Origin: a virus
Lineage: Duplodnaviria; Heunggongvirae; Uroviricota; Caudoviricetes
Reading direction: 5' to 3' (one strand)
DNA length: 39,402 nucleotides
Virus record (IMG/VR): IMGVR_UViG_2541047754_000004
Within the stretch, counting starts at the first letter, position 1, and each line of letters starts with the position of its first letter. Under the pieces are notes generated by a model. It saw only the letters and a list, made by a program, of their open reading frames with translations, was not told where the DNA came from and ran no database searches. Of the stretch, positions 1 through 38,933 are shown piece by piece. The translations under genes and the position numbers were made by a program.

Positions 1-555
1 TCATTTATCTCCCACCGGAAACCTCTTATACAAAGTCGATATGCCAACATCATAGATGATCGCTACCTTCAGGCGAGGAACTCCTGATGCAATTAATCGT
101 CCGGCCTGTGCCCATTGTTCTGGTGTAAGTTTGGGACGTCGTCCACCAATTCGTCCCTGTGCGCGAGCAGCTTCCAGTCCTGCTTTTGTTCGTTCAACAA
201 TCAGTTCACGTTCCATTTCAGCCAGGGCCCCCATCACATGAAAGAAAAAGCGCCCCATTGGGGTACTGGTATCAATTGAATCCGTCAGACTACGAAAGTT
301 GATGCCTCGTTCGCGCAACTCCTCCACCAGCACGACAAGATGCCGCATACTGCGCCCCAGTCGGTCCAGTTTCCAGACCACCAGCGTGTCACCTGCCGAT
401 AATGTCCTGAGCAGCTTTTTCAGTCCTGGTCTGTCGGACTTTGTACCGCTTATCTTGTCTTCAAAAATCAGCTCACATCCTGCACAGTTCAGCGCATTAC
501 GTTGTAGATCGGTATTCTGGTCATTTGTTGATACACGTACATAGCCAATAAGCAT
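1..555 (-). CDS. pin: Serine recombinase, DNA invertase of the Pin/Gin/Hin/Cin family
   Basis: 184 aa; N-terminal MLIGYVRVSTNDQ with catalytic Ser, GDTLVVWKLDRLGRS motif and C-terminal HTH; near-identical in length and sequence to e14 Pin as recalled; ATG at 553-555, stop at 1-3. Confidence 0.92.
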   Translation of the reverse strand: MLIGYVRVSTNDQNTDLQRNALNCAGCELIFEDKISGTKSDRPGLKKLLRTLSAGDTLVVWKLDRLGRSMRHLVVLVEELRERGINFRSLTDSIDTSTPMGRFFFHVMGALAEMERELIVERTKAGLEAARAQGRIGGRRPKLTPEQWAQAGRLIASGVPRLKVAIIYDVGISTLYKRFPVGDK

Positions 556-608
556 GTTAAATCCCCTGGTAAAAGCAGGAATGATGCCATTTGCTCGTTA
601 TTTCTGCA

Positions 609-634
609 TTTTCATAAACGTTGGTTTTGGAGAA
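609..634. repeat. Left inversion crossover site (gix/pix-like, 12-2-12 bp)
   Basis: TTTTCATAAACG-TT-GGTTTTGGAGAA; its reverse complement matches the site at 2355-2380 in 11 of 12 left half-site bases with identical AA core. Confidence 0.6.
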
Positions 635-919
635 GGTGCTCAAGGTATTAGGTTACCTGTCGTCTGGCCATCTGAGGGTGTGTCTCTTGGATTTACCATA
701 AGCAGCACCGTAATAGTGTTATCGAAGTCCCAGGCCTCTACATCATCGGACACTGCCTACTCAGTTAACGCGAATGTTTTTCCTTCGCTAACAACTGATG
801 CACCACGGCGTGCAATCATGCGTATTGTGCATCATGCACGAGCAGCGAACGGGGGGAGCATATGGCAGACCTGTCAGGCAGCAACATCTTTGGCGCATAT
901 AGGGGTGAAGTATTCATAA
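635..919 (+). other. Silent alternative tail-fibre C-terminal cassette, in frame with the constant part after inversion
   Basis: Reading frame continues from crossover site through GFGEGAQGIRLPVVW... to stop at 917-919; junction GEGA matches the junction in the expressed fibre; no own start needed. Confidence 0.45.
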
Positions 920-1209
920 GTACGTGTGCATGGGTAAACCGAATAGGTTGTAACATCAATACAACAGCCAAATATCTCAGGCATTCAGTACACCACTTGA
1001 TCATGGGGTGATAGTGAGAAAGGTGTTACATTCAAACTGCGATATGGAGCATCCAACATGAAAACAAAGGCTAACTCTGAACGGAAAATCTGCATGGATA
1101 TAGACTGGTCACCGTGCCGGAAAGGATGCGTTGGCTTTTTCTTAAGGCAAAAAAGTACGAATACACGGACAGGTTGACAGTATAAATTCCTGCTGTCGTA
1201 ATTCTGTTC

Positions 1210-1530
1210 ATGTGTATAACGCATCTTAAGCAGGGGGAAAAACTTCCGGCAAATGGAACAAAATTTACGTGTAACGGATGGATCTTTGTACGTCAACAGC
1301 GCCCTATGTTGAATGACTTACTCGAAAGTCGCTCAAGGCTTGAAGTGATTTGGATCGGTGCTGGTAACGGCTGCCATCTCACCATTTCACCGTTACAGCA
1401 CGGCGTTAAATCGGATTGTGTGAAACGGGGGAAATACACTTCCGCCCTGCACTTTCCCCCAGAAGACGCTGAAGGAGCACAGTGCTACATCAAGCATGAA
1501 GTAGCAATGGCCTTCTTCAGCGTGTTCTAG
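1210..1530 (+). CDS. Hypothetical small protein, alternative-orientation partner gene inside invertible segment
   Basis: 106 aa ORF; shares a T-x-CNG-x4-RP motif with the 115 aa minus-strand ORF at 1537-1884; would follow the alternative cassette after inversion. Confidence 0.4.
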   Translation: MCITHLKQGEKLPANGTKFTCNGWIFVRQQRPMLNDLLESRSRLEVIWIGAGNGCHLTISPLQHGVKSDCVKRGKYTSALHFPPEDAEGAQCYIKHEVAMAFFSVF

Positions 1531-1536
1531 CTCAAT

Positions 1537-1884
1537 TTACAGGGCGTACGTAACCTTAATCAGGTACACACCACCCGATTTAACGCCTGGCGGTATTGCT
1601 TTAATCCTGTCATGGCAGTCTTTAATGGCACCGCGACAATTGACAGTTGCAGTGACGTCACGTACGCGTGGGTCAACCGATATAGGGCGATGTTCATCTT
1701 TATAGACGCATCCGTTACATATGGTATCTGTCACACTTGCTGAAATGTGTTCGCCAGTGACCAGTTGAGTGGAACACACCAACAGCCTTCCGACGGCAGT
1801 AAAATATACATTAAACCAGTCCGCATATTCAGACTTTATTACCTCAAGCAATAACCAATAAATATCGCTTGGCACTGTGAGCAA
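1537..1884 (-). CDS. Hypothetical small protein downstream of expressed tail-fibre tip (possible fibre partner or chaperone)
   Basis: 115 aa ORF directly downstream of the fibre gene on the same strand; Cys-rich; paralogous motif with ORF 1210-1530. Confidence 0.45.
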   Translation of the reverse strand: MLTVPSDIYWLLLEVIKSEYADWFNVYFTAVGRLLVCSTQLVTGEHISASVTDTICNGCVYKDEHRPISVDPRVRDVTATVNCRGAIKDCHDRIKAIPPGVKSGGVYLIKVTYAL

Positions 1885-2123
1885 TCCATATTCGTCCTAG
1901 ATTTCGATCCTCTGTTCGACTTCGTCATCAAGGTGAAAGCTCCATTTAGAAGTCTTTCTGTTACAAAATTCTGACCATTTCCTCATCATCTGGCCACATA
2001 CTTGATGCCTCAAATTTCTCGTTCTTGGACTGATGTAACAACCCATTCAGTTTAGCCATCCCCGCGCACTTATCGATAACCACCCCCTATTATGGCCACA
2101 TTTATTGCTCCCTGACATCCTAG

Positions 2124-2705
2124 TCATGCTCGCCCCCCTGTTAATGATTTTGTATGATGAAAAACCGGCATAATAGCTGGCCGTGCTTTAGCTAATGCCA
2201 CAGTACCGATCTCTTTCCAGTGCATTGGGATATCATTGGCAGTGATTGTAACCGCCTGGGGGATCATAAAGAGTATTCCAGAGGTGCCATTGAGTAAGGC
2301 ATCTGGCATACGGGCGGTTAGCCTTCCGAACGGAAAGCTAATACAGGTAGCACCTTCTCCCAAACCAAGGTTTTCGAGAGCCGTTTTCACCGTGCCATCC
2401 GATTTGATATCGCCAAACGGATTCTTGCGGCTCAGGTATTCAACAGCAAACCCCGATCCCAGCAATTCAACAAAACCGGGCAGATCACCATTATCAAGCA
2501 CATCCCGTTGCGTTTTATCACTTACAAACTGGGCCAGAGCTGCAGCAATAAAGCTGGCCTGCCGAATAACCTTATTGACTTGCGCACTGGATGCTTTCCC
2601 TGCTGTAAATCCGGATATAAGCGCAGGCAACGCTTCCCATTCCTCCTGCGACATAACATTGGCATTTCGATCAGTTGCAAACGCTTTAAAGTCATTTTTC
2701 GCCAT
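2124..2705 (-). CDS. Tail fibre protein, constant N-terminus plus currently expressed variable C-terminal tip
   Basis: [28 protein letters not shown]-terminus typical of enterobacterial prophage tail fibres; ATGA overlap with upstream gene at 2705; crossover site lies inside the ORF at 2355-2380. Confidence 0.8.
2355..2380. repeat. Right inversion crossover site (gix/pix-like) inside tail-fibre ORF
   Basis: TTCTCCCAAACC-AA-GGTTTTCGAGAG, inverted relative to site at 609-634. Confidence 0.6.
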
Positions 2706-3385
2706 CAGATTAATACTCCCCATGCCCCTACATCAAAACCACTGATGAATTCGTTATCCATATCAAAACCAAAAAATTTAGAGCCTTCCGATGGAGTTTC
2801 CACCGAAGGTGTTTCAATGCCCCCCGCCCATACCCCGGCGGCTTTTACTGTTAGATACCCCTGTTTAATTGCCGCAATTAACTCACGCGATACATCTGAA
2901 ATATCAGTATCAGGAAAGACCCAGACCGATATCGTCATGTCCTGGTTATCGACTATCTGCATTCGCAGCCCGGATCCTGCTGTTGCCGCGTCAAGAATTG
3001 CCGGAAGCGAATCATTCCGTCCGTCCCAGTTATTAATCGCAATCTTCGCTTTAAGAATGACACGATAAGTTTCATCGCTGAGATACATGTATCCTGAATC
3101 AGGATCGTATGGTCCCTGCCATACCCCCTGATCATATCCAAGCCCGTCGGTATCCCAGCTGAAATAGACACCTGAGATAGGCTGGCTGACAACACGGCTA
3201 CGTCCGATCCACAATCCAAGAATGTCAAGTTGCACACCAACCGCAGAGTCAATATCAAATGCAGTAATCAGCCCTCTGGTGGCAGCCGCAACATCAATAA
3301 GTGGCCGGGTCATCAGATCAACATGCGCAAGAAATTTAGGTTTGGTGGCGTGGTAGTTCGTGATTAGTTCGGTGTATTTGCTCAT
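2705..3385 (-). CDS. Tail or baseplate protein (position of P2 gpI)
   Basis: 226 aa; sits between baseplate J-like gene and tail fibre; overlapping stop/start with neighbours. Confidence 0.65.
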
Positions 3386-5686: not shown

Positions 5687-5827
5687 TTGATAGGCTCCAA
5701 TAATTTAAAACACTTGCTTTGATATTTTTGTTAAGAGCAACCAAACTATATGTTCGGATAGTGGTTGGTTTTATTAACCGTTTTCCGCTTATCAATCACA
5801 GCAATTAAATCTTTACAAGGATTAGAT

Positions 5828-6049
5828 ATGAGCACTGACTCGCAAACAACCGATATTCAGGTCAAATGCCTGCATTGTGGAGCATGGTTTCCTTCAGCTA
5901 TATGGATTGGGGATCGTGAGTCCCTTCAGTCTGGAGTTTTGTTTGGGAACAAGCAACAATGCCCGAAATGTCATAAAATGACTGATTGTAATAAAGAAAA
6001 TTTCAAAGCTAGATTTAAGGATGGCGGATTTATAGGTACGAAAGTCTAA
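5828..6049 (+). CDS. Hypothetical zinc-ribbon protein (cargo gene)
   Basis: About 73 aa from ATG at 5828 (AGGA upstream); CxxC...CxxC; opposite strand to the tail operon; AT-rich. Confidence 0.5.
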   Translation: MSTDSQTTDIQVKCLHCGAWFPSAIWIGDRESLQSGVLFGNKQQCPKCHKMTDCNKENFKARFKDGGFIGTKV

Positions 6050-6061
6050 ATAACATCCCCC

Positions 6062-6092
6062 AAAAAAGCCTCACGGCGATATGAGGCTTTTT
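6062..6092. terminator. Bidirectional intrinsic terminator
   Basis: A-run, GCCTCA stem, loop, TGAGGC stem, T-run; lies between convergent genes ending at 6049 and 6112. Confidence 0.6.
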
Positions 6093-6111
6093 CAATGAAT
6101 ACTAAAAATGT

Positions 6112-6459
6112 TCAATCAGCAATTTTCTTACAAGGGTAAGATCCAATGATTTTCGGAGCATCCATGCTGTTTTGCAGCAGTTGGACGTTCAGGAAGGCTT
6201 TTCCGTTACGCTTCACAAACTCAAAGCCGTAATTGTTGCCATCGCGGGAAGGCATCAGGCCCATGTCGGTTTTAACGTTGTCCCAGTCATCTTTCTGACC
6301 AAGAAACTTAATTTTCTGAGATGTTACCTGTTCGCCGTTGATTTTCGTCCACCCGTTATCAGATGCATGAAGTCGGTATCCCCCGCATTGCAAATCAGCG
6401 AAAGCCGATGAGCAGGAAAACAGTAACGAAATTGTCAGAACTAACTTCATACGCTTCAT
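6112..6459 (-). CDS. Small secreted protein or lipoprotein (cargo gene)
   Basis: About 115 aa from MKRMKLVLTISLLFSCSSAFA signal peptide (possible lipobox LFSC or AxA cleavage); two Cys in mature part; ATGA overlap with upstream hub gene. Confidence 0.55.
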   Translation of the reverse strand: MKRMKLVLTISLLFSCSSAFADLQCGGYRLHASDNGWTKINGEQVTSQKIKFLGQKDDWDNVKTDMGLMPSRDGNNYGFEFVKRNGKAFLNVQLLQNSMDAPKIIGSYPCKKIAD

Positions 6460-7523
6460 GAATAAATCCTTTGCTGCGCTGAGGACGAAAGTAAATCCGC
6501 CGCGCCACGCGCTTCGCACATCATGTCCATGTACCACGCCTGGCCCCTTGTGTCACCAGTGTACATAATCCCGCGCACAATATAAACGCCATCCGTTGCG
6601 ATGCTGGCAGGCTGCGATGTGGTGCCGCTGAGCGTGATATTTCCGTCCGTGTTCTGGTCGGTGATCTGACCACCAGCCATCGCAATATCGTTGTTCGACA
6701 ACGCGGTACGATAGACGGAAGCCTGATCCAGCTGAATGAGCCCGTTAACCCGGATGTTCGGATTAATAAGCGCGCGGACGTTTACGCCGTTACCGATAGT
6801 CTGCTGCGGCATTCCAATAAGCCCGGTAGCGCTGTTGAGCACAATCGCTTCGTGAACATATTCGTTATTCGCCACCATCTGGCGCTGACCGTCCACGAAT
6901 TGCCATGTTGCGCCACATTGTCCGGCTACGTTATCCATTAGATGCCGCGTCATGCCAAAGAGTACCCGCCCCCGGGGGAATACAGTAGCAGGCATTTCAG
7001 GCGTCAGGCCTTCGGTCGCGCCTTTGGCTTCGAAGTCTTTCATCAGCGCACGGTTCACATCAGCGACCGTGTAACCGGCAGCCAGCGTCTGTGAGGTTAT
7101 ACTGGTAGCAAAAGCCAGATCAGTATCTGCTGCCTGAATCAGGACGTAGGTATCAACCGGACTGTCTTTTCCTGTGACCGAGTAGCGAATTTCACCGCTG
7201 AAAATCAGTCCGTAGTTGCGGCCATCACTCTGGCCCACGTCCGCCGCGTCAACTTCCCGCACTGTCCCGACGTCGCTTGCCGACACCTCCGGCGCGATAC
7301 CGTCGTAACCCGCAATCAGACGCACTTTCGAAAACTCCTGTCCGGTGATTCGGTTCACAGTATCTGCCGAGAGGTTATAAATTTTGATAGTCCCTACCCG
7401 GGATGCACTGCTGATGTTGAACCAGTCGATCGTAAAGGTAACTTTAAAATCACTTAGCTCAATTCCCTGACCGTTCCCGTCCACAAGCTGCAGCTCGAAA
7501 TGTCTCATCCAGTTCTGTGACAT
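6456..7523 (-). CDS. Baseplate hub protein (P2 gpD / late control D-like position)
   Basis: 355 aa; follows tape measure and two small tail genes as in P2-type tails. Confidence 0.7.
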   Translation of the reverse strand: MSQNWMRHFELQLVDGNGQGIELSDFKVTFTIDWFNISSASRVGTIKIYNLSADTVNRITGQEFSKVRLIAGYDGIAPEVSASDVGTVREVDAADVGQSDGRNYGLIFSGEIRYSVTGKDSPVDTYVLIQAADTDLAFATSITSQTLAAGYTVADVNRALMKDFEAKGATEGLTPEMPATVFPRGRVLFGMTRHLMDNVAGQCGATWQFVDGQRQMVANNEYVHEAIVLNSATGLIGMPQQTIGNGVNVRALINPNIRVNGLIQLDQASVYRTALSNNDIAMAGGQITDQNTDGNITLSGTTSQPASIATDGVYIVRGIMYTGDTRGQAWYMDMMCEARGAADLLSSSAQQRIYS

Positions 7524-7828: not shown

Positions 7829-8415
7829 TAGCCGCCCCCCAGTAATGACGCCACGTTACCCGTGATGCTTTTCAGCAGTGAAGTATCTGGAGGCTTTGTG
7901 GTTTTGTTGCCGCTATTCTGTACCGCCGACGTGCTGGCCCCTTCCTTCATGTTGGTTTTATCCGCGACGGTAATCTGCTGTGTCCGGGAGATAAGGACCT
8001 CCCTCAGGGTGAGGACGGCGGACAGGACGTTTTCGGTTGTCTTGTCCGTCGTCACTTCCAGCGCCCGGATCAACATGTTGCTGTACAGTCGTTTACCGGT
8101 TACCACATCGAAGGGGATACGGCTTTCCTGCAGATCCAGTAGCTCCTGATACGTCTGCTGAGGACTCAGGCCGAGCAGGCTGGTAGCCGTCAGATTACTG
8201 GCAAAATCCAGCAATGCGCCGCCACCGGCGAAACCAACCTCCATCACCACTTCTGACGGTTTTTTATAGGCATGATCAGCGACAGCGGCCCCAACCTCTA
8301 CCGGATGCTCTGTTATTTCAAGCATATCTGTATGCTTCTCTGAAATAACAACACTGGGAACAATCATTCCTATTTTTCTGCTCTGCTGATGAAAAAGTGT
8401 AGAGAGAATATCCAC
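7828..8415 (-). CDS. Tail protein (gpU-like position)
   Basis: 195 aa; start overlaps tape measure stop. Confidence 0.55.
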   Translation of the reverse strand: MDILSTLFHQQSRKIGMIVPSVVISEKHTDMLEITEHPVEVGAAVADHAYKKPSEVVMEVGFAGGGALLDFASNLTATSLLGLSPQQTYQELLDLQESRIPFDVVTGKRLYSNMLIRALEVTTDKTTENVLSAVLTLREVLISRTQQITVADKTNMKEGASTSAVQNSGNKTTKPPDTSLLKSITGNVASLLGGG

Positions 8416-28134: not shown

Positions 28135-28317
28135 GTGCTCCCCGATATGAAAAAAGGAATACAACCGATGAAACCTGAACACATCCATCGACTGACGGGG
28201 CGCGATGTTCTCCGTTATCGCAGTAAAAACTTCGATTTGATGACCGGTCTGGCCGTTGCCACTGCGCTCGGTCTGATCATCACTTTCATTCTCCTTGTAG
28301 CGAGGACCACAGTATGA
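28135..28317 (+). CDS. Small C-terminally membrane-anchored protein
   Basis: 49-60 aa depending on start; C-terminal hydrophobic helix LAVATALGLIITFILLVA; ATGA coupling to next gene. Confidence 0.45.
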   Translation: MLPDMKKGIQPMKPEHIHRLTGRDVLRYRSKNFDLMTGLAVATALGLIITFILLVARTTV

Positions 28318-29216: not shown

Positions 29217-29218
29217 TC

Positions 29219-30520: not shown

Positions 30521-30535
30521 TTTAAGGAAATACCC

Positions 30536-31084
30536 ATGAAACTGAAGCTGAACAATGTTCGTCTGGCCTTCCCGTCTCTGTTTGAAGCTAAAACAGTAAA
30601 CGGCGAAGGCGATCCACGTTTCTCCGCAGTATTTTTAATGTCACCCAAACACCCACAACTGGAAGAAATCCGTAAAGCTATGAAGCAGGTAGCGAAGGAA
30701 AAATGGGGGGAGAAGTGGGAGTCCATTTATAACCAGCTGGAGAAAAAACTCAATCTGTGCCTGCATGATGGTGATGAAAAAGCAGAGTATGAAGGCTTCC
30801 CCGGCAATTTCTTCCTGAATGCTGCTAACAAAGCGCGCCCAGCTGTTCTTGATCGCGATCGTTCGCCACTTATTCAGGCTGATGGACGTCCCTATGCAGG
30901 GTGCTATGTAAACGCCGTTATCGATATCTGGGCACAGGACAATAATTTCGGTAAACGCATTAATGCCTCACTCGGCGGAGTCCAGTTCCTGCGAGACGGC
31001 GATGCATTCGCTGGCGGCGGAGTGGCAAGCGCTGACGATTTCGACGATATCAGCGAAGGCGCAGACGCCGATACGCTCATTTGA
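30536..31084 (+). CDS. DUF2815-type protein (putative ssDNA-binding) of the PolA module
   Basis: 182 aa; acidic C-terminal tail DDFDDISEGADADTLI; conserved position after DUF2800. Confidence 0.72.
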   Translation: MKLKLNNVRLAFPSLFEAKTVNGEGDPRFSAVFLMSPKHPQLEEIRKAMKQVAKEKWGEKWESIYNQLEKKLNLCLHDGDEKAEYEGFPGNFFLNAANKARPAVLDRDRSPLIQADGRPYAGCYVNAVIDIWAQDNNFGKRINASLGGVQFLRDGDAFAGGGVASADDFDDISEGADADTLI

Positions 31085-31099
31085 GTAACAATGCAGCCC

Positions 31100-31600
31100 T
31101 CATTGAATTGGGGGCTGTTTAGATTCCTGTTCCTCTTTCAATGAACGAACTTTGCTATCATATATCCTGAGTGCATATTCGTTAATTTGCCTAGTTAAAT
31201 CGGAATCTAGCTTATAATATTTTTCAGCCCACTCAATTAAATTCTTCCTCATTATTATCTTCGGTTCAATTTTATTAATTCTATTTAAATGCATATCACG
31301 ACCGCGTTCAAAATTAAGATATGCTTGTTCACTAACGCCCTGTCCATCGATTGTGTAGGTAGTACCACTTGCACGGAAAGAGAGATGAGTCTTTTTACCA
31401 GCATATCTTTCATTATGTATAGCTTTATCGGTATTCACTATTCGAAGCCATGTCCAAAACTCATCATTAAGAATGTATTTATCAATTATTTTTAATATTA
31501 AAAAATCTCTACCTATTAGTAATAGAGGCATCAAAAAATAAACCCCAAGAAAACTCAACGCCGCTGTAATAATAGTTGAAAAAGATATTGATAACTCCAT
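31100..31600 (-). CDS. Membrane-anchored hypothetical protein (cargo gene)
   Basis: About 166 aa from ATG at 31600 (GGAG upstream); one N-terminal TM helix; AT-rich; opposite strand to flanking replication genes. Confidence 0.6.
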
Positions 31601-31621
31601 TTTACTCTCCAAAGGTTAGAC

Positions 31622-33685
31622 ATGAACAATATACTATGGGGCGACCTGGAAACCTATTGCGAAATCCCGATTACGAACGGCACCCATGCGTATGCCGAAG
31701 GCGTTGAAGTGATGCTTTTCGCATGGGCTATCAACGACGGGCCAGTAAACGTGTGGGATATCACTGCCGGAGGTGGTATTCCACACGGCTTATACGAAGC
31801 AATCGCAGACCCTGAAACCCTGCTTTATTTCCATAACTCTCACTTCGACCGCACCGTTCTGCGTTATGCAATGCCGCGACTGGCACCGCCAGTCGAACGT
31901 TGGCGCGACACGATGGTGCAGGCGCTGGCGCACGGTCTCCCGGGGGCTCTGGGGGAACTCTGCGAAGTACTAGGCGTCCCGCAAGACAAAGCGAAGGACA
32001 AAGAAGGTAAAGCGCTGATCCAGCTGTTCTGTAAGCCACGCCCGAAAAACAGCAAACTGCGTCGGGCCACCAGTAAAACCCACCCGGAAGAATGGCGGCG
32101 CTTTGTTGCTTACGCCGGACTGGATATCGAGGCAATGCGCGAAGTCTATAAACGTCTGCCGAAGTGGAATTATCAGGGGACAGAACTGGCGCTCTGGCAT
32201 CGTGATCAGCAGATCAATGACCGGGGCGTCTGCATGGACATGCAACTCGCACGCGCTGCGATCGAAGCGGTAGACCAAGAACAAAAGCGCCTGGCAAAGC
32301 GTACACAGGAAATGACTGATGGCGAAGTGCAGGCAGCCACACAACGAGACGCGTTGATTAAGCACATTGTTGAATCCTACGGTGTGGAGCTACCAGACAT
32401 GCAACGCAGTACTCTGGAACGTCGTATTGCCGACCCCGATTTACCATCTGCCGTGAAAGAACTGCTGGCTATCCGCCTGCAAGCCAGTACTACCAGCACC
32501 AGTAAATACAAGGCACTGATGAAAGGCGTAAGCCACGACGGGCGCTTACGCGGTACGCTACAGTTCTGCGGGGCGTCACGTACCGGTCGTTGGGCCGGAC
32601 GGCTATTCCAGCCCCAGAACCTTCCCCGCCCTTCACTAAAACAGGAACAAATAGACGAAGGCATCGAAGCACTGAAAGCCGGATGTGCAGACCTGCTGTT
32701 TGACAATATCATGGAACTAACCAGTTCAGCGTTACGTGGCTGCATTATCGCGCCAACAGGCAAAAAACTGGTGGTAAGTGACTTGTCAAACATTGAAGGC
32801 CGTATGCTGGCATGGCTGGCGGGAGAGGAATGGAAACTGAATGCATTCAGAGAGTACGACGCCGGAACGGGTCCGGACTTATATAAACTGGCGTATGCAA
32901 AAGCTTTCGATATTGCACCAGATGATGTTGATAAACACATGCGTCAGATCGGTAAAGTCATGGAACTCGGTCTGGGTTATGGAGGTGGTGTAGCGGCTTT
33001 CATCACTTTTGCTCTGGTTTACGGTCTCGATCTCGACGAGCTGGCGAACGCCGCACTGCCAAACATTCCCCGCGATGTTATCCGCGAGGCGAAAAGCTGG
33101 TACGACGAATCGGTTAAACGCAAGTCAACCTACGGGCTTTCTGAACGGGTATTTATCGCCTGCGACTCACTTAAACGTCTCTGGCGCAGGGCGCACCCGG
33201 CGACCTGCGATTTCTGGTACGAACTGGAGCGCACCGTCCGCACAGCAATCGCCACACCGCAAAAAACATTGTATTGCGGCTATCTTAAAATCCGACGTGA
33301 TGGCGCGTGGCTGCGCATACAGCTACCATCCGGACGCGCTGTATGCTACCCGTCTCCGGTTATCGAAAAAGGGAATATCACCTACATGGGTGTTAACTCT
33401 TATTCGCGTAAATGGCAACGACTCAAAACCTACGGCGGAAAGCTGGTGGAGAACGTCACCCAGGCAGCCGCCCGCGACGTTCTGGCCGGAAACATGCCGC
33501 TTATCGAAGATGCCGGTTACAGTATTGTGTTGACGGTACACGACGAGGTGATCACCGAAGCACCTGACACAGAAGATTTCAACGATAAAGCGCTTTCCGC
33601 GCTTCTCTCCACTAACCCCGAATGGGCACCCGATATTCCGCTGAATGCTGGCGGCTTTGAGGCGTACCACTACCGTAAGGAGTAA
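31622..33685 (+). CDS. Family-A DNA polymerase with 3'-5' exonuclease domain
   Basis: 687 aa; exo motif WGDLETY, motif [17 protein letters not shown], motif C TVHDEV. Confidence 0.9.
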
Positions 33686-33692: not shown

Positions 33693-34721
33693 TCACTTAA
33701 AATCCCTAGATAACATCTGCGAAGCAGCTGATGCTGTATAAACTCCAGTATGTTTTATTTCTGCAGCTATTTTGTAGCCATCCTCCTTAAACTGCGTAAG
33801 CATTGAGCTTAAGGAACCAAGTTTTTTAGTATTCAACACCATTCTAACGACAGTTCCTTCATGATAATGACCTAACTCTATATGCTTCTTTCCGTGTTCA
33901 TCTAGATATATTGCATGGTCACCGCTACAAATAAGAAAACTACCGCCAAGTTTACATATACGGCTGATCATATAAAGGCCAAATCCCGAATTATGCCAAG
34001 GATTTCTTGTATTGATTCTCGCCCCCTTAAAATTTTTACTAGAAATAGATGGCATTAACGCTAACTGAATGGCTTCAGAATCATTATCAGCTTCTATATA
34101 AGGGTTCTTCGATAGAGATTTTTTCATTCCTATACCATTATCAGAAATTGTTATTTCAACACGGTCATAAGAAGGCCAATACTGTGCACAATATTCAATC
34201 ACCTTTGAATCACTATGTTCCACAACATTACGCATAATTTCCCTAATAGAAAATGTCAAAGCATCAATGAGGTCGCCTTCTTCTTGGCGAGCAAGAATCT
34301 TTGCTAATTTACCAGATCGTTCCTCAACTATCTCTTGCACCTCAGTATATTTATCGTTAGCTTCATCTATAACTGTTTGAACACGAAGAATTGTAAATGG
34401 AACAAAATTATTATTTCCATCTGTACATCCCGGTTCACGGCCATGCTTTAACCCGAAGGCTCGAAAGAATGCCATATTTGCGGCATAATCCTTATTCTCA
34501 TGCCCGCTACAAAAAAGTTTAAAACCATCAATGTTCTTTTTCTGTTTTCGATGGAAGTCTCGAATATGCTTAGCAACATAAACCATTGTAAATGGTTCAA
34601 TCCTTCCCATATGCGAAAAATCGATTGTTATTTGCTGTTGACCTGAATGTTTTTCAATTTCATTGCAAAAATTAAATATCTTTTCAGGATTACATGAAGA
34701 GGGAAATAAGATTCGTGACAT
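33693..34721 (-). CDS. GHKL (histidine-kinase-like) ATPase domain protein with unknown N-terminal domain (cargo gene)
   Basis: 342 aa; ATG at 34721 with AAGGA upstream; motifs RNVVEHS, ITISDNGIGM, NSGFGLYMISR; AT-rich; opposite strand. Confidence 0.7.
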   Translation of the reverse strand: MSRILFPSSCNPEKIFNFCNEIEKHSGQQQITIDFSHMGRIEPFTMVYVAKHIRDFHRKQKKNIDGFKLFCSGHENKDYAANMAFFRAFGLKHGREPGCTDGNNNFVPFTILRVQTVIDEANDKYTEVQEIVEERSGKLAKILARQEEGDLIDALTFSIREIMRNVVEHSDSKVIEYCAQYWPSYDRVEITISDNGIGMKKSLSKNPYIEADNDSEAIQLALMPSISSKNFKGARINTRNPWHNSGFGLYMISRICKLGGSFLICSGDHAIYLDEHGKKHIELGHYHEGTVVRMVLNTKKLGSLSSMLTQFKEDGYKIAAEIKHTGVYTASAASQMLSRDFK

Positions 34722-34781: not shown

Positions 34782-35069
34782 ATGTCTTATGAACGTGAGA
34801 GCCTTATCGAAAAGCACCTCGTCGCTGAAGTGAAAAAGGCTGGCGGTGTGGCCTTTAAGTTCGTATCTCCCGGTCGCCGCTCGGTACCGGATCGCATTGT
34901 TCTGCTACCCGGCGGCCGTCTTGTTTTCGTTGAATGCAAAGCACCCGGCAAAGCACCACGCGCCGACCAGTTGCGCGAGCACGAGCGGCTGCGCGAGCTG
35001 GGCTTTACCGTGGTGGTGCTGGATAGCAAAAATCTGGAGGAAATTATTTTAAGCCGCAATAAAAGATAA
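34782..35069 (+). CDS. VRR-NUC domain nuclease
   Basis: 95 aa; PDRIVL...FVECKAP (D...ExK). Confidence 0.8.
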   Translation: MSYERESLIEKHLVAEVKKAGGVAFKFVSPGRRSVPDRIVLLPGGRLVFVECKAPGKAPRADQLREHERLRELGFTVVVLDSKNLEEIILSRNKR

Positions 35070-35081: not shown

Positions 35082-35879
35082 TTAATCCGTATTTTTAACA
35101 CGTGTTTCGAAACACTCTTTTAATTTAGCTATTTCCTTTTTAGAGGACATGACTGTGAATTTCATCCCTTTTAAATCATTAACAAATTCAAATTTTGCGC
35201 TATTGGACTCACAATCACCAACAACAAAACCACTACCAAATGAATTGAGCAACACTTTAGTATTACTACCATCTACCATATAATATTCGTTATTTTTAAA
35301 TGCAGTAACCTTCCCGAAGGTATAGCTCAATATCAATAATGTCATCACCCCTAAAGGAAAAGCTGATTTTAGGATTTTTAAATCGATATAATAAAATACG
35401 TCTTTATACTCTGCAAGCCTCCCAAATTTTCTAATGCTATCCATATGATGTTCGTGTCTCTTACTATGGATTGACGCGGACACCGCATTGTGGTAATTCA
35501 ACAAAAGCAGAGCAAATAATAAAATATCTCCAACACTCATCACAGAGGTTTCGGAGAAATAACCAAAAGGCCAATGGAATCCTATTATGTAAAAATTAGG
35601 TATTAGCATAACCACTATAAATATAATAAATGGAACATAATATTTCCCTTTCAAATCAAACATCAATGTCGCGTATAAGGCACCGAGAAATAAAAAACTA
35701 AAAAACAAAAGCCATACAGCCGAATACAATAGCGTATTTAAATCTATTTTAATAAAAAGGGCTGGATAGCCATAATACGATGCAACACCTTTCTGAAAAG
35801 AATATGCCATCGCATAAGCTAACGCTGAAAAAACAGTTAATAAAGAAACTTGTTTTGTAAGTATTTTTGCCAGGGGCAT
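35082..35879 (-). CDS. Polytopic membrane protein with soluble C-terminal domain (cargo gene)
   Basis: 265 aa; ATG at 35879 with GGAGG upstream; several hydrophobic helices in first about 150 aa; AT-rich; opposite strand. Confidence 0.65.
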   Translation of the reverse strand: MPLAKILTKQVSLLTVFSALAYAMAYSFQKGVASYYGYPALFIKIDLNTLLYSAVWLLFFSFLFLGALYATLMFDLKGKYYVPFIIFIVVMLIPNFYIIGFHWPFGYFSETSVMSVGDILLFALLLLNYHNAVSASIHSKRHEHHMDSIRKFGRLAEYKDVFYYIDLKILKSAFPLGVMTLLILSYTFGKVTAFKNNEYYMVDGSNTKVLLNSFGSGFVVGDCESNSAKFEFVNDLKGMKFTVMSSKKEIAKLKECFETRVKNTD

Positions 35880-35941
35880 ACCCGCCTCCGTTAGTTATAT
35901 ATAGAGAGAGAATTGACACATATTCTACCATAGGTATATTA

Positions 35942-37336
35942 ATGAATAACATATTCCACCCCCGACTTTATCAAAACCTCATAATCAATCACCAAACCGA
36001 CATTCTGCGCGGCAACATCTGGGCAGGGATGGGGATGGGTAAAACCGTAGCGACACTCACCACGCTGGAAGATCTTTTCATGGCTGGAGCAGAAACACAC
36101 CCCGCGCTGGTCCTCGCGCCGCTACGCGTTGCAGCAAGCACCTGGCCTGATGAAGCTGTTAAATGGGGGCATCTGCGTAATATTGAGGTACAGCCGATCA
36201 TCGGTAACGCCAAAGCGCGCTCTACGGCGCTGGCGAACAGCAACGCGAGCGTGTTCACCATCAACTACGATAACCTTGTCTGGCTGGTTGAAGAATTGGG
36301 AGAACGATGGCCGTTCGGAACTGTCATTCCAGATGAAAGCACCCGGCTAAAATCCTTCCGGCTGCGAGGTGGTGGTAAGCGCGCGGCGGCGCTGGGCAAA
36401 GTGGCGCATAAGTATGTCCGGCGCTGGATAAATCTCACCGGTACGCCAGCACCGAACGGCCTGGTAGATTTGTGGGGACAATCGTGGTTTGTGGACCAAG
36501 GGCAACGTCTCGGGCGCACTTACGGCGCGTTTACCTCACGCTGGTTCAACTCGATACAGTTTCCGGGACAGAGCTGGACTAAACTGGAACCTTTTGCTCA
36601 CTCACAGGGTGAAATACAGCGAGCATTAGCCGATGTGACCCTCTCGCTGGATGCGGCCGACTGGTTCGATATCAAAGACCCCATCCATAACGTAATCCGC
36701 GTGGATATGCCCCCGAAGGCCCGTCAGCAGTATCGTGAAATGGAAAAGGAAATGTTCCTCGAGCTGAATAGCGAAGGCATCGAAGCACCGAACGCCGCGG
36801 CAAAGACACTGAAGTGTCTTCAAATCGCTAGTGGCGCAGTATACACAGACGACACCGGAAGTTGGTCAGAACTGCATGACACCAAACTACAGGCGCTGGA
36901 CAGCATACTGACCGAAGCAGCTGGCGCACCTGTGCTGGTTGCTTATCACTGGAAACACGATCTTGAACGCTTGCTTAAAGCATTCCCTCGCGGTCGTCAC
37001 CTCGACCAGGATCCACAGACACTGCGCGACTGGAATTCCGGAAAGATTCCTGTTCTCTTTGCACACCCAGCCAGCGCGGGCCACGGCCTGAACATGCAGG
37101 ACGGCGGAAATATACTGGTATTTTTCTCACACTGGTGGGACCTGGAGCAATATCAGCAAATTATTGAACGTATCGGCCCCACCAGGCAGATACAGGCCGG
37201 ACACAATCGTCCGGTATTTATTCACCACATTATTGCTGCCGACACTATGGACGAAATGGTGATGGAGCGGCGCAACTCAAAACGAACAGTGCAGGACATC
37301 CTGCTCGATGCCATGAAAAAGAGAGGTATAGCATGA
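35942..37336 (+). CDS. SNF2/DEAD-like superfamily-2 helicase
   Basis: About 464 aa from ATG at 35942; GMGMGKT (motif I), VIPDES (II), LTGTP (III), AGHGLN (VI); start uncertain (ORF track gives TTG at 35867). Confidence 0.82.
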   Translation: MNNIFHPRLYQNLIINHQTDILRGNIWAGMGMGKTVATLTTLEDLFMAGAETHPALVLAPLRVAASTWPDEAVKWGHLRNIEVQPIIGNAKARSTALANSNASVFTINYDNLVWLVEELGERWPFGTVIPDESTRLKSFRLRGGGKRAAALGKVAHKYVRRWINLTGTPAPNGLVDLWGQSWFVDQGQRLGRTYGAFTSRWFNSIQFPGQSWTKLEPFAHSQGEIQRALADVTLSLDAADWFDIKDPIHNVIRVDMPPKARQQYREMEKEMFLELNSEGIEAPNAAAKTLKCLQIASGAVYTDDTGSWSELHDTKLQALDSILTEAAGAPVLVAYHWKHDLERLLKAFPRGRHLDQDPQTLRDWNSGKIPVLFAHPASAGHGLNMQDGGNILVFFSHWWDLEQYQQIIERIGPTRQIQAGHNRPVFIHHIIAADTMDEMVMERRNSKRTVQDILLDAMKKRGIA

Positions 37337-37533
37337 GCGAGAAACCCGACGATTTACTCACCCCGGATGAAGTATGCCAAAAGTTAGGTATTACACAGAA
37401 AACGCTATGTGAGTGGAATATTAAGCATCGTCATCGGGCTATCCTGGCACCAATTCGTTTCAGTGCAAAAGTAGTTCGTTATGAGCGCCGAAATGTCGAC
37501 GCTTTTATTCAAAAATGTCGCAGCCAGTATTAA
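37333..37533 (+). CDS. AlpA/Xis-like small DNA-binding protein (putative excisionase)
   Basis: 66 aa; LTPDEVCQKLGITQKTLCEW HTH; ATGA coupled to helicase; adjacent to integrase. Confidence 0.7.
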   Translation: MSEKPDDLLTPDEVCQKLGITQKTLCEWNIKHRHRAILAPIRFSAKVVRYERRNVDAFIQKCRSQY

Positions 37534-38933
37534 CCTCGCCGCCGTAGCAATGCCACCTGCGCAAGTATGCTCCGCTCGTGAGCCTCGAAAGCTTCGCGCT
37601 TTAACGCAATCTCTTCCTGCAAAATCTCATCAGAAAAGTCGTAATGTTCTGCCATCGGGTCATCTGACTTGCTGGAGTGGTGAAGGCAAAGGAGGCTGAT
37701 TTCCCTTCGGTCTGATCGGGAATAGCCTCTTTCCTTCATCAAGGCAATAACATTGCTCTTAAGGAATTTACGGCACATCGTATTAAATGCACCGTCTTTC
37801 CCTTTAACAGTCCCATCATGTTTTATTCCTTTTACAGCCCCATCCGGGCTGTATGTTTTCACTAGCTTATCCAGTGATCGTTTTGAAAATGGCTGCATTG
37901 GATCACGCGGCTGCAAAAATACATAATCCCTGTTGCACTCAGGAACTGAATCACGCCAGGCTTTCTGCTCGTCGATAATCCGCCGGATCTCAGGCGTTAT
38001 CGGCAGGCGGAAAGCCTTTTGTGTTTTCATAGCCCCTCGCATGCCGATAACCCCTTCCGGATAAACAATTTCACCAGCCTCCTCGTGAACGTAGTCCCAG
38101 CGCAGGTTATGGACATTAATCGGACGAACACCAGTGATGATCATGAAGCGAACAGCATTCTTCTGGTGTACAGAGGTGCAGGCAGCAACATTGAGCCAGA
38201 GTCGGGCGATTGATTCAATATCGGTAAAAAGCCGTGTGGGGGTAGGTTTCTGTACGCGGGAGGAAACATAATCATCTGGCAGACTGGCGGCAACATTGCG
38301 GCCGTTGCAAAGAGTAGGTGCGCAGAACTTCCAGAACCGACGGAGCTCGGCAAACAACTCCAGGGCGTTATTGTTCGAGCGAGTGGCGATCCACTCGTCC
38401 AGCACTTCCACCAGCCGACTGTATGTTACGTCGCTGAACACCTCGCGCTCGCCGAACGTTGATTTAATCCGGTCGATACGCACCCCGTAGGTTGTGAAAC
38501 TGTCCGGGCTCAGCTTCTGACGGGCTACTTTGGCTTTGAGGTCATCCCGGTACATTTCCAGCGCTGCATGTACGGACTCTGCCCGCAGTCCACCGTCAGC
38601 CATACCTAGTGCTTTTTCGCGCGCCAGCTGGATAGCGAGCTCCGGCCACTCGCCGAGCTTTTTACCTTTGAGGCCCATCTTTTTTGGAAACTCGGCGTAA
38701 AATGTAACCTTACCGGCTTTGCTGAAATCGATACGGAGATAGTTCTCTTTTTCGTATTTGGAACGGCGAGCCACGCCGGAAGCAGCGAGGATGATTTTGG
38801 CGGCAGCAACACAGATTTTCATGTGTGCGCTGGTATAGGGGGGTTTACAGGCATCCCATTTTTCAGAAGCGGCTAAAACATCGTCATTATTGGGGCTATC
38901 CGGATTATGTGTTACAGTGCGCGGCATTCTCAA
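37530..38933 (-). CDS. Tyrosine integrase (phage integrase family)
   Basis: 467 aa; AAGGA upstream of ATG at 38933; C-terminal catalytic region with R...H..R...Y-type spacing; last phage gene before chromosomal yfhL. Confidence 0.85.
   Translation of the reverse strand: MRMPRTVTHNPDSPNNDDVLAASEKWDACKPPYTSAHMKICVAAAKIILAASGVARRSKYEKENYLRIDFSKAGKVTFYAEFPKKMGLKGKKLGEWPELAIQLAREKALGMADGGLRAESVHAALEMYRDDLKAKVARQKLSPDSFTTYGVRIDRIKSTFGEREVFSDVTYSRLVEVLDEWIATRSNNNALELFAELRRFWKFCAPTLCNGRNVAASLPDDYVSSRVQKPTPTRLFTDIESIARLWLNVAACTSVHQKNAVRFMIITGVRPINVHNLRWDYVHEEAGEIVYPEGVIGMRGAMKTQKAFRLPITPEIRRIIDEQKAWRDSVPECNRDYVFLQPRDPMQPFSKRSLDKLVKTYSPDGAVKGIKHDGTVKGKDGAFNTMCRKFLKSNVIALMKERGYSRSDRREISLLCLHHSSKSDDPMAEHYDFSDEILQEEIALKREAFEAHERSILAQVALLRRRG

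Follow-up and report, generated by a model that had tools for sequence, protein, structure and literature searches.

Gene content and control region

The window, i.e., the whole stretch of 39,402 nucleotides analysed, carries lambda-like control, virion and DNA-polymerase genes, all of which are real and of known types. The gene classes named in a preliminary description of this DNA (CI/Cro switch, small Q antiterminator, S/R/Rz lysis genes with a lambda R-type endolysin, MuF-type head, contractile tail, PolA block, separate primase/helicase and tyrosine integrase) were all found at about the claimed positions, whereas its P2 tail order, its two replication gene sets and its boundaries did not hold. 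Outside positions ~640-2380, all genes of the window are intact. The regulatory and lysis features are:

21932..23378, minus strand: lambda-type lysis cassette Rz, R, S (family matches)
23388-23367, minus strand: terminator-like hairpin between Q and the holin gene (hairpin search)
23665-24099, minus strand: Q antiterminator (Pfam Phage_antitermQ PF06530, E=8.7e-51)
26578..27534, divergent: immunity switch Cro/CI (Pfam)
26578-26808, minus strand: Cro-like HTH protein (Pfam)
26860-27534, plus strand: CI, HTH plus Peptidase_S24 (Pfam), likely start near 26911

The CI translation, read by eye, contains a QAGE cleavage-like motif and a GDSM serine, and an operator-like palindrome lies at 26850. 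A cleavable CI and a Cro-like protein would face each other over a short stretch of operator DNA, and Q, followed by the terminator, would gate a late operon opening with the lambda-type S, R and Rz genes. The DNA of the lysis cassette is 89% identical to the S/R/Rz genes of SfV, and it encodes a lambda-family S holin with an MKM dual start, an R transglycosylase/endolysin (22440-22916) matching lambda lysozyme 1AM7 (E=2.7e-94), and an Rz-like spanin (family match).

A probable replication cassette split by the immunity region

Replication genes lie on both sides of the switch:

24231..24409: candidate replication origin, an AT-rich CCCCATATATATATATAA element surrounded by seven GGAACCAC iterons, some in each orientation
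24388..26574, minus strand: PrimPol (AEP primase) fused to a VapE-like SF3 helicase (Pfam VapE-like_dom E=2.3e-60; Prim-Pol E=3.6e-10)
27661..28317, plus strand: early-operon leader of leftward type (putative function)
27857-28051, plus strand: Zn-ribbon ORF in the leader
~28084-28110, plus strand: hairpin with T run in the leader
28135-28317, plus strand: small membrane ORF in the leader
28314..31084, plus strand: block of conserved 300-aa protein, DUF2800 and SSB (Pfam; PHROG 6784)
29219-30520, plus strand: DUF2800 PD-(D/E)XK nuclease (Pfam E=1.9e-110)
30536-31084, plus strand: gp2.5-like SSB, DUF2815, now Enc34_ssDNA-bd (Pfam E=2e-44)
31100..31612, minus strand: cargo slot 1, 170-aa membrane protein (no hits in family searches; hypervariable slot)
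31622..33685, plus strand: family A DNA polymerase, full length, 687 aa (Pfam DNA_pol_A)
33693..34721, minus strand: cargo slot 2, 342-aa STAS-like plus SpoIIAB-like GHKL ATPase (Pfam HATPase_c; model and fold search)
34782..35069, plus strand: small PD-(D/E)XK / VRR-NUC-like nuclease (PHROG 93, E=6.6e-31; PGAP PDDEXK family nuclease)
35082..35879, minus strand: cargo slot 3, 265-aa multi-pass membrane protein (no hits in family searches; hypervariable slot)
35939..37336, plus strand: SNF2-family helicase (Pfam SNF2-rel_dom)

Pfam supports the DUF2800, DUF2815, DNA_pol_A and SNF2 members of the PolA block, and the genes in 28314..31084 are conserved in all related loci. The polymerase, which has homologues in 1731 phage records, scores 52.4 bits against the DNA_pol_A cut-off of 34.3 bits, and its NCBIfam exonuclease/polymerase matches fall below their cut-offs. 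The VRR-NUC assignment is weak, with a Pfam VRR_NUC match under threshold (E=0.027), but the protein does match a PHROG endonuclease family. A promoter-like site in the leader overlaps a second ACAAC-N5-ATTGT palindrome (27671), and these two matching palindromes together with the promoter-like site suggest that the PolA operon may be under CI control. Despite the hairpin with a T run upstream of the operon, a search for an N-like antiterminator identified none. The three cargo slots of the operon are defence hotspots; the slot 3 stretch has low GC (0.37), and the slot 2 protein has 552 homologues, of which the 120 listed are 63-99% identical and all uncharacterised.

On the Cro side, seven of the eight GGAACCAC sites in the window fall within the candidate origin (chance expectation, 0.98), at the 3' end of the primase-helicase gene, and relatives carry lineage-specific iterons at the same spot that vary together with the primase-helicase C-terminus. 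No iteron cluster was found on scanning 27500-37600. The arrangement of iterons and AT-rich core matches the SaPI Rep/ori layout (PMC9371898). The likeness to SaPI Rep/PriRep5 (PMC9371898; PDB 7PDS) includes a homologous SF3 helicase domain (SaPI1 Rep1 7PDS, E=8e-34), a primase fused to the helicase, as in PriRep5, and iterons flanking the core directly after the gene, in opposite orientations on either side. However, the iterons of the candidate origin are 8-mers instead of penta- or hexamers, the primase is a PrimPol, and the element that carries them is a phage encoding a polymerase.

The two halves appear to complement each other within one replication cassette that the immunity region divides. 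The PrimPol-SF3 protein (VapE/SaPI Rep-like) of the Cro side, beside its own iteron origin, would open the origin and serve as both helicase and primase. DNA synthesis and the processing of recombination intermediates would fall to the CI side, with its DUF2800 exonuclease, T7 gp2.5-like SSB, family A polymerase, small junction nuclease and SNF2 translocase. The PolA block of the window lacks a replicative helicase, an initiator and an origin, and the primase-helicase side lacks a polymerase; a primase or hexameric helicase was never present in the PolA block of the window or of related loci. Linkage of the halves was assessed in 64 IMG/VR loci whose PolA is at least 88% identical and has 7.4 kb or more of sequence upstream. 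A full-length homologue of the window primase-helicase was found in 54, always on the divergent strand and 4.4-7.5 kb upstream, and partial matches in seven others bring the linked loci to 61 of 64. The scanned slots of L039 (no match) and L055 (partial match) hold other primase/helicase types of ~700-750 aa, AAA_25 and DUF5906, and the corresponding slot of phage vB_EcoM-611R5 holds PrimPol plus DUF5906. Yersinia phage YeP4 and the virulent Guernseyvirinae phage Otaku show this divergent arrangement as well. Published descriptions of Enc34 (PMC5686142) and AchV4 (PMC7996906) give primase, polymerase, VRR-NUC and helicase as one module, and a duf2800-gp2.5-polA module has been described (PMC8093625).

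Two other divisions of labour were weighed. The PolA block might be auxiliary, since a primase-helicase with its origin can in principle use host Pol III, as SaPIs do; bulk synthesis would then fall to the host enzyme, and the DUF2800, SSB, PolA, nuclease and SNF2 genes would mainly form a recombination/repair kit replacing lambda Red and nin. The block does fill the position of exo/RecT/gam in phage SEN34, DUF2815 proteins are grouped with annealing proteins of the gp2.5 type and have a PD-(D/E)XK nuclease as partner (PMC8093625), and SaPI Rep-type initiators need no polymerase of their own (PMC9371898). Nevertheless, this reading seems unlikely given that the polymerase is full length and that, in virulent Guernseyvirinae and Enc34-type phages, no other module bears a polymerase and the block carries the annotation of replication module.

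A much less probable reading is that of the preliminary description, which saw two distinct replication gene sets, taken as independent and redundant systems, either able to replicate the genome. The halves are indeed separate divergent operons on either side of the immunity region, and SEN34 has O/P alone in the primase-helicase position with no phage polymerase, indicating that this slot can suffice with host enzymes. Against redundancy stand the complementary gene contents, including the lack of an iteron cluster in the PolA block, the linkage in 61 of 64 loci despite swapped immunity alleles, the layout shared with YeP4 and a Guernseyvirinae phage, and the published treatment of both parts as one module.

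Head and tail form one virion module

The virion genes, all leftward except for one cargo ORF, are:

14884..21870, minus strand: head/packaging, major capsid, cement, DUF2213, MuF, portal, TerL, TerS (Pfam; PHROG 2 for TerL)
12637..14845, minus strand: neck/connector, neck terminator, head-tail adaptor, Neck1/tail completion, DUF4054, small STY1053-like (Pfam; PHROGs 939, 222; PGAP)
11488-12633, minus strand: tail sheath (Pfam DUF3383, E=1.1e-100)
11037-11477, minus strand: tail tube (Pfam KPP10_Orf10, E=8.8e-61)
10581-11033, with -1 extension to ~10388, minus strand: tail assembly chaperone (Pfam Phage_TAC_15)
8415..10424, minus strand: tape measure (Pfam PhageMin_Tail, weak), likely start ATG at 10403
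7828-8415, minus strand: Dit_like hub protein (Pfam)
7526-7828, minus strand: Pam3_gp18 plug (Pfam)
6456-7523, minus strand: E217_gp41-like hub (Pfam)
6112-6537, minus strand: cargo ORF, signal-peptide protein (no hits in family searches)
5765-6049, plus strand: cargo ORF, Zn-ribbon-like (no hits in family searches)
4934-5686, minus strand: spike, gp138-type N domain plus GpV apex motif
4581-4934, minus strand: gp25/W-like sheath initiator
3382-4581, minus strand: Baseplate_J
2705-3385, minus strand: DUF2612 baseplate wedge
2124..2723, minus strand: tail fibre gene (PHROG tail fibre families, residues 1-130)

The wedge-spike set (2705-5686) was assigned by Pfam, PHROG 120 and PGAP (in related locus L004). 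The MuF-type head is borne out by TerS, TerL, a portal of the Phage_portal_3 family, MuF, DUF2213, cement and major capsid, and the contractile tail by sheath, tube, chaperone, tape measure, three hub proteins, spike, gp25/W-like protein, Baseplate_J, DUF2612 and fibre. The sheath protein matches the solved sheaths 7KH1 and Pam3 8HDR, and a tape-measure homologue is labelled lytic transglycosylase by PGAP. The chaperone frameshift is real: a slippery heptamer G GGA AAT lies in phase at ~10638, the -1 frame is open for ~85 codons, and the extension corresponds to the DUF6889 ORF of L004. The cargo stretch 5765..6537 is replaced in 611R5, SEN34 and the prophage of E. coli JNEC-KY175.

The tail had been described as following P2 order. 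In P2 (NC_001895), however, V W J I H G precede FI FII E T U D, a separate operon, with fun(Z) between them, and a phmmer comparison of the window structural proteins with P2 proteins gave zero matches; the likeness extends to generic contractile-tail parts and the frameshifted chaperone only. The reading of a P2 tail attached to an independent MuF head was rejected: the two form a single coherent module of the DUF3383-sheath class (E217/Pam3/XM1/Aaphi23, with SEN34 also a relative) in Mu order. Mu (NC_000929) shares the order from sheath to fibre, followed by Tfa genes in both orientations and an invertase. By phmmer, the invertase matches Gin (2.8e-98) and one window protein matches gp47 (1.3e-6); beyond these, no window protein matched Mu. 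The module runs from terminase, portal, MuF, scaffold, cement and capsid through neck, sheath, tube, frameshifted chaperone, tape measure, hub, spike and wedge to the fibre, ending in a segment presumably flipped by the Gin/Pin-type invertase.

Integration site, identity and relatives

The right end of the window carries the integration functions:

37333-37533, plus strand: small HTH excisionase-like protein (Pfam HTH_17; TIGR01764 weakly)
37530..38933, minus strand: tyrosine integrase (Pfam Phage_integrase; PGAP name)
39172..39189: attR core, 18 bp, AATTGTGATATGTGTGAA, within the yfhL 5' end, the true right end of the element

In three related prophages, the left junction has the same 18-mer adjoining yfhH (in L004, with 17 of the 18 bases). 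The boundaries had been placed at 1-38933, but the left edge lies inside the prophage, at the invertase gene, and the element runs past 38933, because attR sits inside yfhL. The window is very probably most of a ~42-kb temperate, contractile-tailed Escherichia prophage in the 5' end of yfhL, with four known modules that would comprise lambda-style control and lysis, a DUF3383-sheath virion, one split replication cassette, and Xis plus Int.

The closest deposited phages are vB_EcoM-611R5 (ON470588), -606R2 (ON470579), -683R1 (ON470593) and -689R2 (ON470582), near-identical induced phages among them, 611R5 included. These four and the yfhL prophage of JNEC-KY175 (NZ_AP045171) share the overall architecture of the window. 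Bases 1-20000 are covered to 82% by 611R5, 606R2 and 683R1 (79% by 689R2) at ~97% identity, and 52% of the remaining bases by 611R5, 606R2 and 689R2, but not 683R1, at 98%. The JNEC-KY175 prophage, at the same insertion site, aligns over 2472-39402 at 96-99% bar four short gaps. In contrast, 611R5 has another immunity region, Q and primase-helicase type; the genes in the three cargo slots differ among these relatives, 611R5 carrying a TIR-like PDC-S35 gene. The terminase-to-primase junction is present in 92 complete E. coli genomes. The preliminary description would fall if this architecture were a common, well-described lineage, and this is largely the case: the architecture is common and deposited, yet scantly covered in the literature.

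Mosaicism as such is upheld by two phages that each share one half. SEN34 (Brunovirus SEN34, NC_028699), which electron microscopy showed to be a myovirus (PMC5261728), likewise pairs lambda-style regulation and lysis with a contractile tail and shares the terminase-to-wedge virion module (~81% DNA identity), but its early half is unrelated, with lambda O/P, exo/RecT/gam and NinB/NinG where the window has the primase-helicase and PolA block, a longer Q, another integrase and no invertase. It does not belong to the same genus by the usual whole-genome criterion, because the shared DNA is well under half of the genome. Conversely, YeP4 shares the early cassette and differs in its virion genes. 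Otaku/Guernseyvirinae, Enc34/Chi-like phages and YeP4 all carry DUF2800, gp2.5-like SSB, PolA, small nuclease and SNF2 in one operon, adjoined by a divergent large primase-helicase and small HTH regulator. In the window and YeP4, unlike Guernseyvirinae and Enc34-type phages, the two HTH proteins form a true CI/Cro switch, and the cassette is followed by an integrase; the Guernseyvirinae polymerase is only ~42% identical, and the primase-helicase family varies.

The invertible fibre segment

The left end of the window contains:

1..555, minus strand: serine DNA invertase, Gin/Pin type (Pfam Resolvase E=1.3e-51 plus HTH_7; phmmer Mu Gin as above)
616..2373: invertible tail-fibre/Tfa segment, a mix of both orientations with no intact ORFs as given

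The invertase shares 97% identity with the pinE product of L005, an intact relative. The segment aligns to L005 without gaps at ~59% identity (Ts:Tv = 0.5). Within 680-2320, the forward L005 orientation agrees with 59% of bases and the inverted one with 57%, and 95% match either one, versus 68-71% in mis-registered controls; the choice of orientation switches at 49% of informative steps along the segment. Bases ~640-2380 are a base-by-base blend of both orientations, an assembly artefact, and for this reason hold no readable genes. A decaying, defective prophage, with the stretch between invertase and fibre gene as pseudogene debris, is hardly credible: intact ORFs are absent there and all frames of the fibre C-terminus and Tfa homologues contain stops, but this gap-free, randomly alternating pattern arises when a consensus is called from mixed reads, every other gene is intact, and sister phages (97-98% identity) have been deposited as complete genomes under vB_EcoM names. 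The fibre and Tfa genes are unreadable in the window, the fibre being reliable only in its N-terminal part outside the segment. By tblastn, the fibre is 69% identical to that of L005, and the vB_EcoM phages and yfhL prophages have a fibre end that differs from that of the window.

A common prophage lineage built of known modules

The Escherichia phages vB_EcoM-611R5, vB_EcoM-606R2 and vB_EcoM-683R1 each cover 82% of bases 1-20000 of the window at ~97% identity, and vB_EcoM-689R2 covers 79%; 611R5, 606R2 and 689R2, but not 683R1, further cover 52% of the rest at 98%. The JNEC-KY175 prophage, inserted at yfhL in E. coli, aligns across 2472-39402 with 96-99% identity. Among 5426 complete E. coli genomes, the window's polA was found in 159 and the sheath-tube gene pair in 330 (the two counts were made separately), and 92 genomes carried 80% or more of the contiguous stretch running from TerL through the lysis genes, Q and the origin to the primase-helicase gene, one of them with 100% coverage at 99.3% identity. 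The preliminary description had presented the element as a mosaic genome, and had named a database match to a common, known lineage as what would speak against it. Such a lineage was found, as shown by the 92 genomes and the near-identical vB_EcoM phages: the architecture is common and near-identical genomes have been deposited. No paper on the vB_EcoM-611R5 group or these E. coli phages was found in the literature searched. The element is thus a member of an ordinary, already deposited prophage lineage built of known modules. Its modularity and the gene classes assigned to it are real, but neither the P2-type tail nor the duplication of the replication system withstood closer comparison. As a finding on modular evolution, the mosaic is an ordinary case of little import; the results that follow amount instead to a correction of the annotation of a widespread Escherichia prophage lineage, whose virion module is of the DUF3383 class and arranged in Mu order.

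The virion module belongs to the DUF3383 class

The structural genes comprise the following groups:

Head and packaging: TerS, TerL, portal (Phage_portal_3), MuF, DUF2213, a cement protein (E217 gp24/Pam3 gp6 family) and a DUF2184-type capsid protein
Neck: DUF4054, Neck1/tail completion protein, adaptor and neck terminator
Tail: DUF3383 sheath, KPP10_Orf10 tube, chaperone and tape measure
Baseplate: Dit_like, Pam3_gp18 plug, E217_gp41 hub, spike with a GpV apex motif, gp25/W-like, Baseplate_J, DUF2612 and fibre

These genes had been read as a P2-like tail in P2 order, a reading that had to be abandoned. In the P2 record the genes are split over separate operons, with V W J I H G first, fun(Z) next and FI FII E E' T U D last, whereas those of the window run from the sheath to the tape measure and on through hub, spike, wedge and fibre. 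This is exactly the order of the Mu record (sheath, tube, chaperone, tape measure, two hub proteins and V-, W-, J- and I-like proteins), and the match continues through fibre, Tfa, inverted Tfa' and fibre', and then gin. When 24 structural proteins of the window were compared with 23 P2 proteins by phmmer (E up to 10), there were no matches. Direct homology of the tail to either P2 or Mu was rejected, since the same 24 proteins compared with 46 P2 and Mu proteins matched only Gin (2.8e-98) and Mu gp47 (1.3e-6). The sheath falls in Pfam DUF3383, not in the P2 sheath family, and matches the solved sheaths 7KH1 and Pam3 8HDR; tblastn searches with it retrieved Klebsiella and Acinetobacter temperate phages, Aaphi23, Rosemount-like and Felix-O1-like phages and Pbunaviruses, and no P2-like phage. 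Taken together, the family assignments, the phmmer and tblastn results and the gene order argue for one head-tail module of the DUF3383-sheath class, so that, judged from sequence, the virion genes belong with those of E217, Pam3, XM1, Aaphi23 and SEN34. A tail of this class works like any contractile tail, and its parts are functional counterparts of those of P2 and Mu.

The frameshifted tail chaperone reported upstream of the tape measure gene is real: a G GGA AAT heptamer lies in phase, and the -1 frame beyond it is open over ~85 codons, as far as the start of the tape measure gene. A -1 frameshifted chaperone is, however, general to long-tailed phages and no sign of P2 membership.

The Salmonella phage SEN34 (Brunovirus), which shares this virion module at ~81% nucleotide identity and has a lambda-like early region, was identified as a myovirus by electron microscopy (PMC5261728), so that a lambdoid phage with a contractile tail had already been described. 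The alignment with SEN34 is confined to 2472-21336, at 71-84% identity, and no part of the early half aligns. Under the ICTV genus criterion, which asks for ~70% or more nucleotide identity across the full genome length, the window would be placed outside the genus Brunovirus.

Between the hub and spike genes, 5765-6537 contains a small Zn-ribbon-like ORF and a second small ORF for a protein with a signal peptide; other small genes occupy this position in SEN34, 611R5 and JNEC-KY175.

Replication genes form one divergent cassette

The replication genes lie on both sides of the cI-cro pair. On the Cro side is a primase-helicase gene, and on the CI side an operon containing polA:

24388-26574 (-), PrimPol-VapE primase-helicase, Cro side
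CI-side operon: conserved 300-aa protein, DUF2800 PD-(D/E)XK nuclease, DUF2815/Enc34-type SSB, family A polymerase, small nuclease, SNF2 helicase and Xis-like HTH protein

The primase-helicase has 728 aa, with a VapE-like SF3 helicase domain (E=2.3e-60) and a PrimPol domain whose match (E=3.6e-10) passes the Pfam threshold, and its residues 393-657 are homologous to SaPI1 Rep1 (7PDS; E=8e-34). The small nuclease matches Pfam VRR_NUC below threshold (E=0.027) and the PHROG 93 endonuclease with E=6.6e-31, and PGAP calls it a PDDEXK family nuclease.

The preliminary description had counted these genes as two distinct replication sets, a view contradicted both by the content of the PolA operon and by the linkage of the two halves. 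No primase, hexameric helicase or repeat cluster was found in the PolA operon, and a second origin within this block was rejected, as no repeat family there has more than two copies. Linkage was assessed in 80 IMG/VR loci, fetched out of 177 with a polymerase 88% or more identical to that of the window; 64 of them extend far enough upstream. A full-length homologue of the primase-helicase was present in 54 of these 64 loci, always divergent and 4.4-7.5 kb away, and partial matches in 7 further loci bring the total to 61 of 64, while the intervening CI and Cro alleles span 24% to 100% identity across loci. Two exceptions were scanned: one locus without a match (L039) encodes an AAA_25 protein and one with a partial match (L055) a DUF5906 protein, both being primase/helicase types of 700-750 aa. 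In 611R5, the same slot holds a protein with PrimPol plus DUF5906. The full and partial matches and the scanned exceptions together indicate that the slot is always occupied, at times by a non-orthologous protein. Its coordinates in the window and three fetched loci are as follows:

Window, 24388-26574
L001, 11829-14090
L039, 1888-4032
L055, 3012-5246

Across the Cro-Q slots, the protein was always of 700-750 aa and belonged to the PrimPol-VapE, PrimPol-DUF5906, DUF5906-alone or AAA_25 family, next to a PolA block 88-99% identical.

The arrangement recurs outside the lineage. Yersinia phage YeP4 has the same divergent layout and shares the gene order of the window, with unrelated virion genes, and the same layout and operon gene order are found in the Guernseyvirinae phage Otaku and in a Serratia prophage. 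In the Enc34/Guernseyvirinae cassette, DUF2800, DUF2815 SSB, family A polymerase and SNF2 genes stand together in one operon, as in the window. Primase, polymerase, VRR-NUC and helicase genes have been described as a single module in Enc34 (PMC5686142) and AchV4 (PMC7996906), and a duf2800-gp2.5-polA module has been described as common (PMC8093625). Homologues of the polymerase occurred in 1731 phage records.

A reading of PolA plus SSB as a primase of the SCCmec type was set aside. The polymerases described for that system are N-terminally truncated (PMC10061031), whereas the PolA of the window is 687 aa long and begins with an exonuclease-like region (weak NCBIfam matches), and a dedicated PrimPol protein is present. 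The primase-helicase and the PolA operon are therefore best read as one set, a single split replication cassette, in which the primase-helicase would act as origin-specific initiator and the PolA operon would supply synthesis and recombination functions.

A candidate origin beside the primase-helicase gene

Seven of the eight GGAACCAC sites in the window fall within 24231-24409, where 0.98 would be expected by chance. The cluster, located ahead of Q and overlapping the primase-helicase gene at its 3' end, has its iterons in both orientations around the AT-rich element CCCCATATATATATATAA. All relatives checked that encode a VapE-type protein have 5-10 copies of an 8-mer at this position beside an AT-rich stretch, which in most of them is the same CCCCATATATATATATAA element. 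The 8-mers are lineage-specific (GGAACCAC, CTGTACCA, GTAACCAC, TGGTAACA, AGACAACC, GTCCCAAC, CTAGACCA and ACTCAACC), and the last 6-9 residues of the primase-helicase vary along with them between lineages. This covariation suggests cognate pairs of initiator and origin.

The origin of SaPI Rep proteins lies right downstream of the gene, with iterons in opposite orientations on either side of an AT-rich region (PMC9371898), a layout matched in the window, where iterons flank an AT-rich core and the primase-helicase gene ends beside them. Sequence-specific binding and melting of the origin through a C-terminal winged helix, as in SaPI Rep, would fit the covariation of the iterons with the terminal 6-9 residues, the single observation in its favour. 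A candidate origin recognisable from sequence beside the primase-helicase gene is a further correction to the annotation of the lineage, and the lineage-specific initiator-iteron pairs could be used for probing origin specificity.

Lambda-type regulation and lysis

The lambdoid character ascribed to regulation and lysis was borne out by family matches for CI/Cro, Q and S/R/Rz. The repressor combines HTH_3 and Peptidase_S24 domains (Pfam), and its translation contains a QAGE cleavage-like motif and a GDSM serine; the Cro-like HTH_3 gene is divergent, the two genes starting 50-100 bp apart on opposite strands. The Q antiterminator belongs to PF06530 (E=8.7e-51), and between Q and the holin gene a hairpin with a T run lies on the gene strand at 23388-23367, with the lysis genes downstream. 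These encode a holin of the lambda S family (Phage_holin_3_1) with an MKM dual start, an R transglycosylase endolysin matching lambda lysozyme 1AM7 (E=2.7e-94) and an Rz spanin (PHROG 214); an embedded Rz1 was not found by a simple ATG-start ORF scan. None of the ORFs of the window was recognised as an N-like antiterminator, and O and P genes are absent, their position being occupied by the PrimPol-VapE protein.

The palindrome ACAAC-N5-ATTGT occurs only twice in the window, in the cro-cI gap (26850-26863) and, overlapping a promoter-like site, ahead of the PolA operon (27671-27684). The two copies might be CI operators, a hint that the cro-side and PolA operons could both be under CI control.

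Also ahead of the PolA operon, 27857-28110 comprises a Zn-ribbon ORF of 64 codons and, beyond it, a hairpin that is GC-rich and has a T run.

Ends of the element and host flank

The features at the two ends of the window are the following:

1-555, serine invertase gene, inside which the window starts
37530-38933, tyrosine integrase gene
39142-39402, yfhL, at the right end of the window
39172-39189, 18-bp sequence AATTGTGATATGTGTGAA, inside the 5' end of yfhL

The interval yfhH-yfhL is the site of related prophages in complete E. coli genomes, and AATTGTGATATGTGTGAA also adjoins yfhH at the left junction in three relatives, which identifies the copy at 39172-39189 as the att core. The element had been delimited as 1-38933; with the att core inside yfhL, its right end is instead at ~39189, and its left end lies beyond base 1, outside the window. 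Owing to this position of the core, the phage contributes the opening ~10-16 codons of yfhL in a lysogen. The host flank (39190-39402, 213 bp) is 96% identical to the allele of most E. coli and 100% identical to that of two IMG isolate genomes; the host may belong to a divergent lineage of Escherichia. Searches of the window for tRNA genes and Rfam families gave none.

A probable assembly artefact at the invertible fibre segment

No intact ORFs were found at 616-2373, and the garbled sequence spans ~640-2380. Aligned with the invertible fibre/Tfa segment of another prophage, this stretch is gap-free, with ~59% identity and a Ts:Tv of 0.5. Of its bases, 59% match the forward orientation of the segment, 57% the inverted and 95% one or the other, compared with 68-71% in mis-registered controls; the choice of orientation alternates at random, changing at 49% of informative steps, with 623 bases taken from the forward and 591 from the inverted orientation. 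An origin by natural hypermutation or by pseudogene decay was rejected because of the lack of gaps, the Ts:Tv and the 95% match to either orientation of the intact relative. The stretch thus looks like an assembly or polishing artefact, a consensus called on a roughly equal mix of both orientations, in which the fibre C-terminus and Tfa genes have become unreadable.

The serine invertase gene adjoins a segment with two opposed sets of fibre C-terminus and Tfa genes, the arrangement of a Gin/Pin/Hin-type switch. The sequenced population appears to have held both orientations at about equal frequency, and the base-by-base mix implies an invertase active in the sequenced culture. This comparison also yields a procedure by which consensus artefacts can be recognised at invertible segments.

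Cargo genes within the PolA operon

Three genes stand on the opposite strand within the PolA operon:

31100-31612, opposite strand, cargo gene
33693-34721 (-), opposite strand, cargo gene for a 342-aa protein
35082-35879, opposite strand, cargo gene

In the 80 loci, these slots are hypervariable: the gaps between SSB and PolA, PolA and nuclease, and nuclease and SNF2 genes range from near 0 to 2.6 kb and hold ~100 ORF clusters. In sister prophages, with core genes at least 88% identical, the same three slots contain BstA (E=1.4e-115), PDC-S35 with a TIR domain (1.6e-109), PDC-S25 with a SIR2-like domain (3.7e-157) and PDC-S42. Known defence families were rejected for the cargo of the window itself, for which PADLOC gave no convincing family and only a weak partial DrmA match for the 342-aa protein; the 170-aa and 265-aa cargo proteins had no match in Pfam, PHROGs or NCBIfam. 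The replication operon thus contains three defence hotspots with uncharacterised cargo. It is conceivable, at rather less than even odds in our judgement, that the three genes occupying them in the window are themselves anti-phage genes of undescribed kinds.

The strongest candidate, with a plausible though putative defence role, is the 342-aa protein, which joins a STAS-like N-terminus to a SpoIIAB-like GHKL ATPase. In its AlphaFold model (mean pLDDT 76), the C-terminal part resembles SpoIIAB, and there is a weak resemblance of the N-terminal part to RsbS, a STAS protein. The family has 552 uncharacterised homologues, and the 120 listed, at 63-99% identity, come from many Gammaproteobacteria. 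According to the contexts of three fetched loci (L091, L093 and L094), the homologue occurs alone in the corresponding prophage slot in Serratia, stands beside Abi_2, DndB and a ParE/RHH toxin-antitoxin pair in a Pseudomonas island, and lies among apparently integron-style cassettes in Vibrio.
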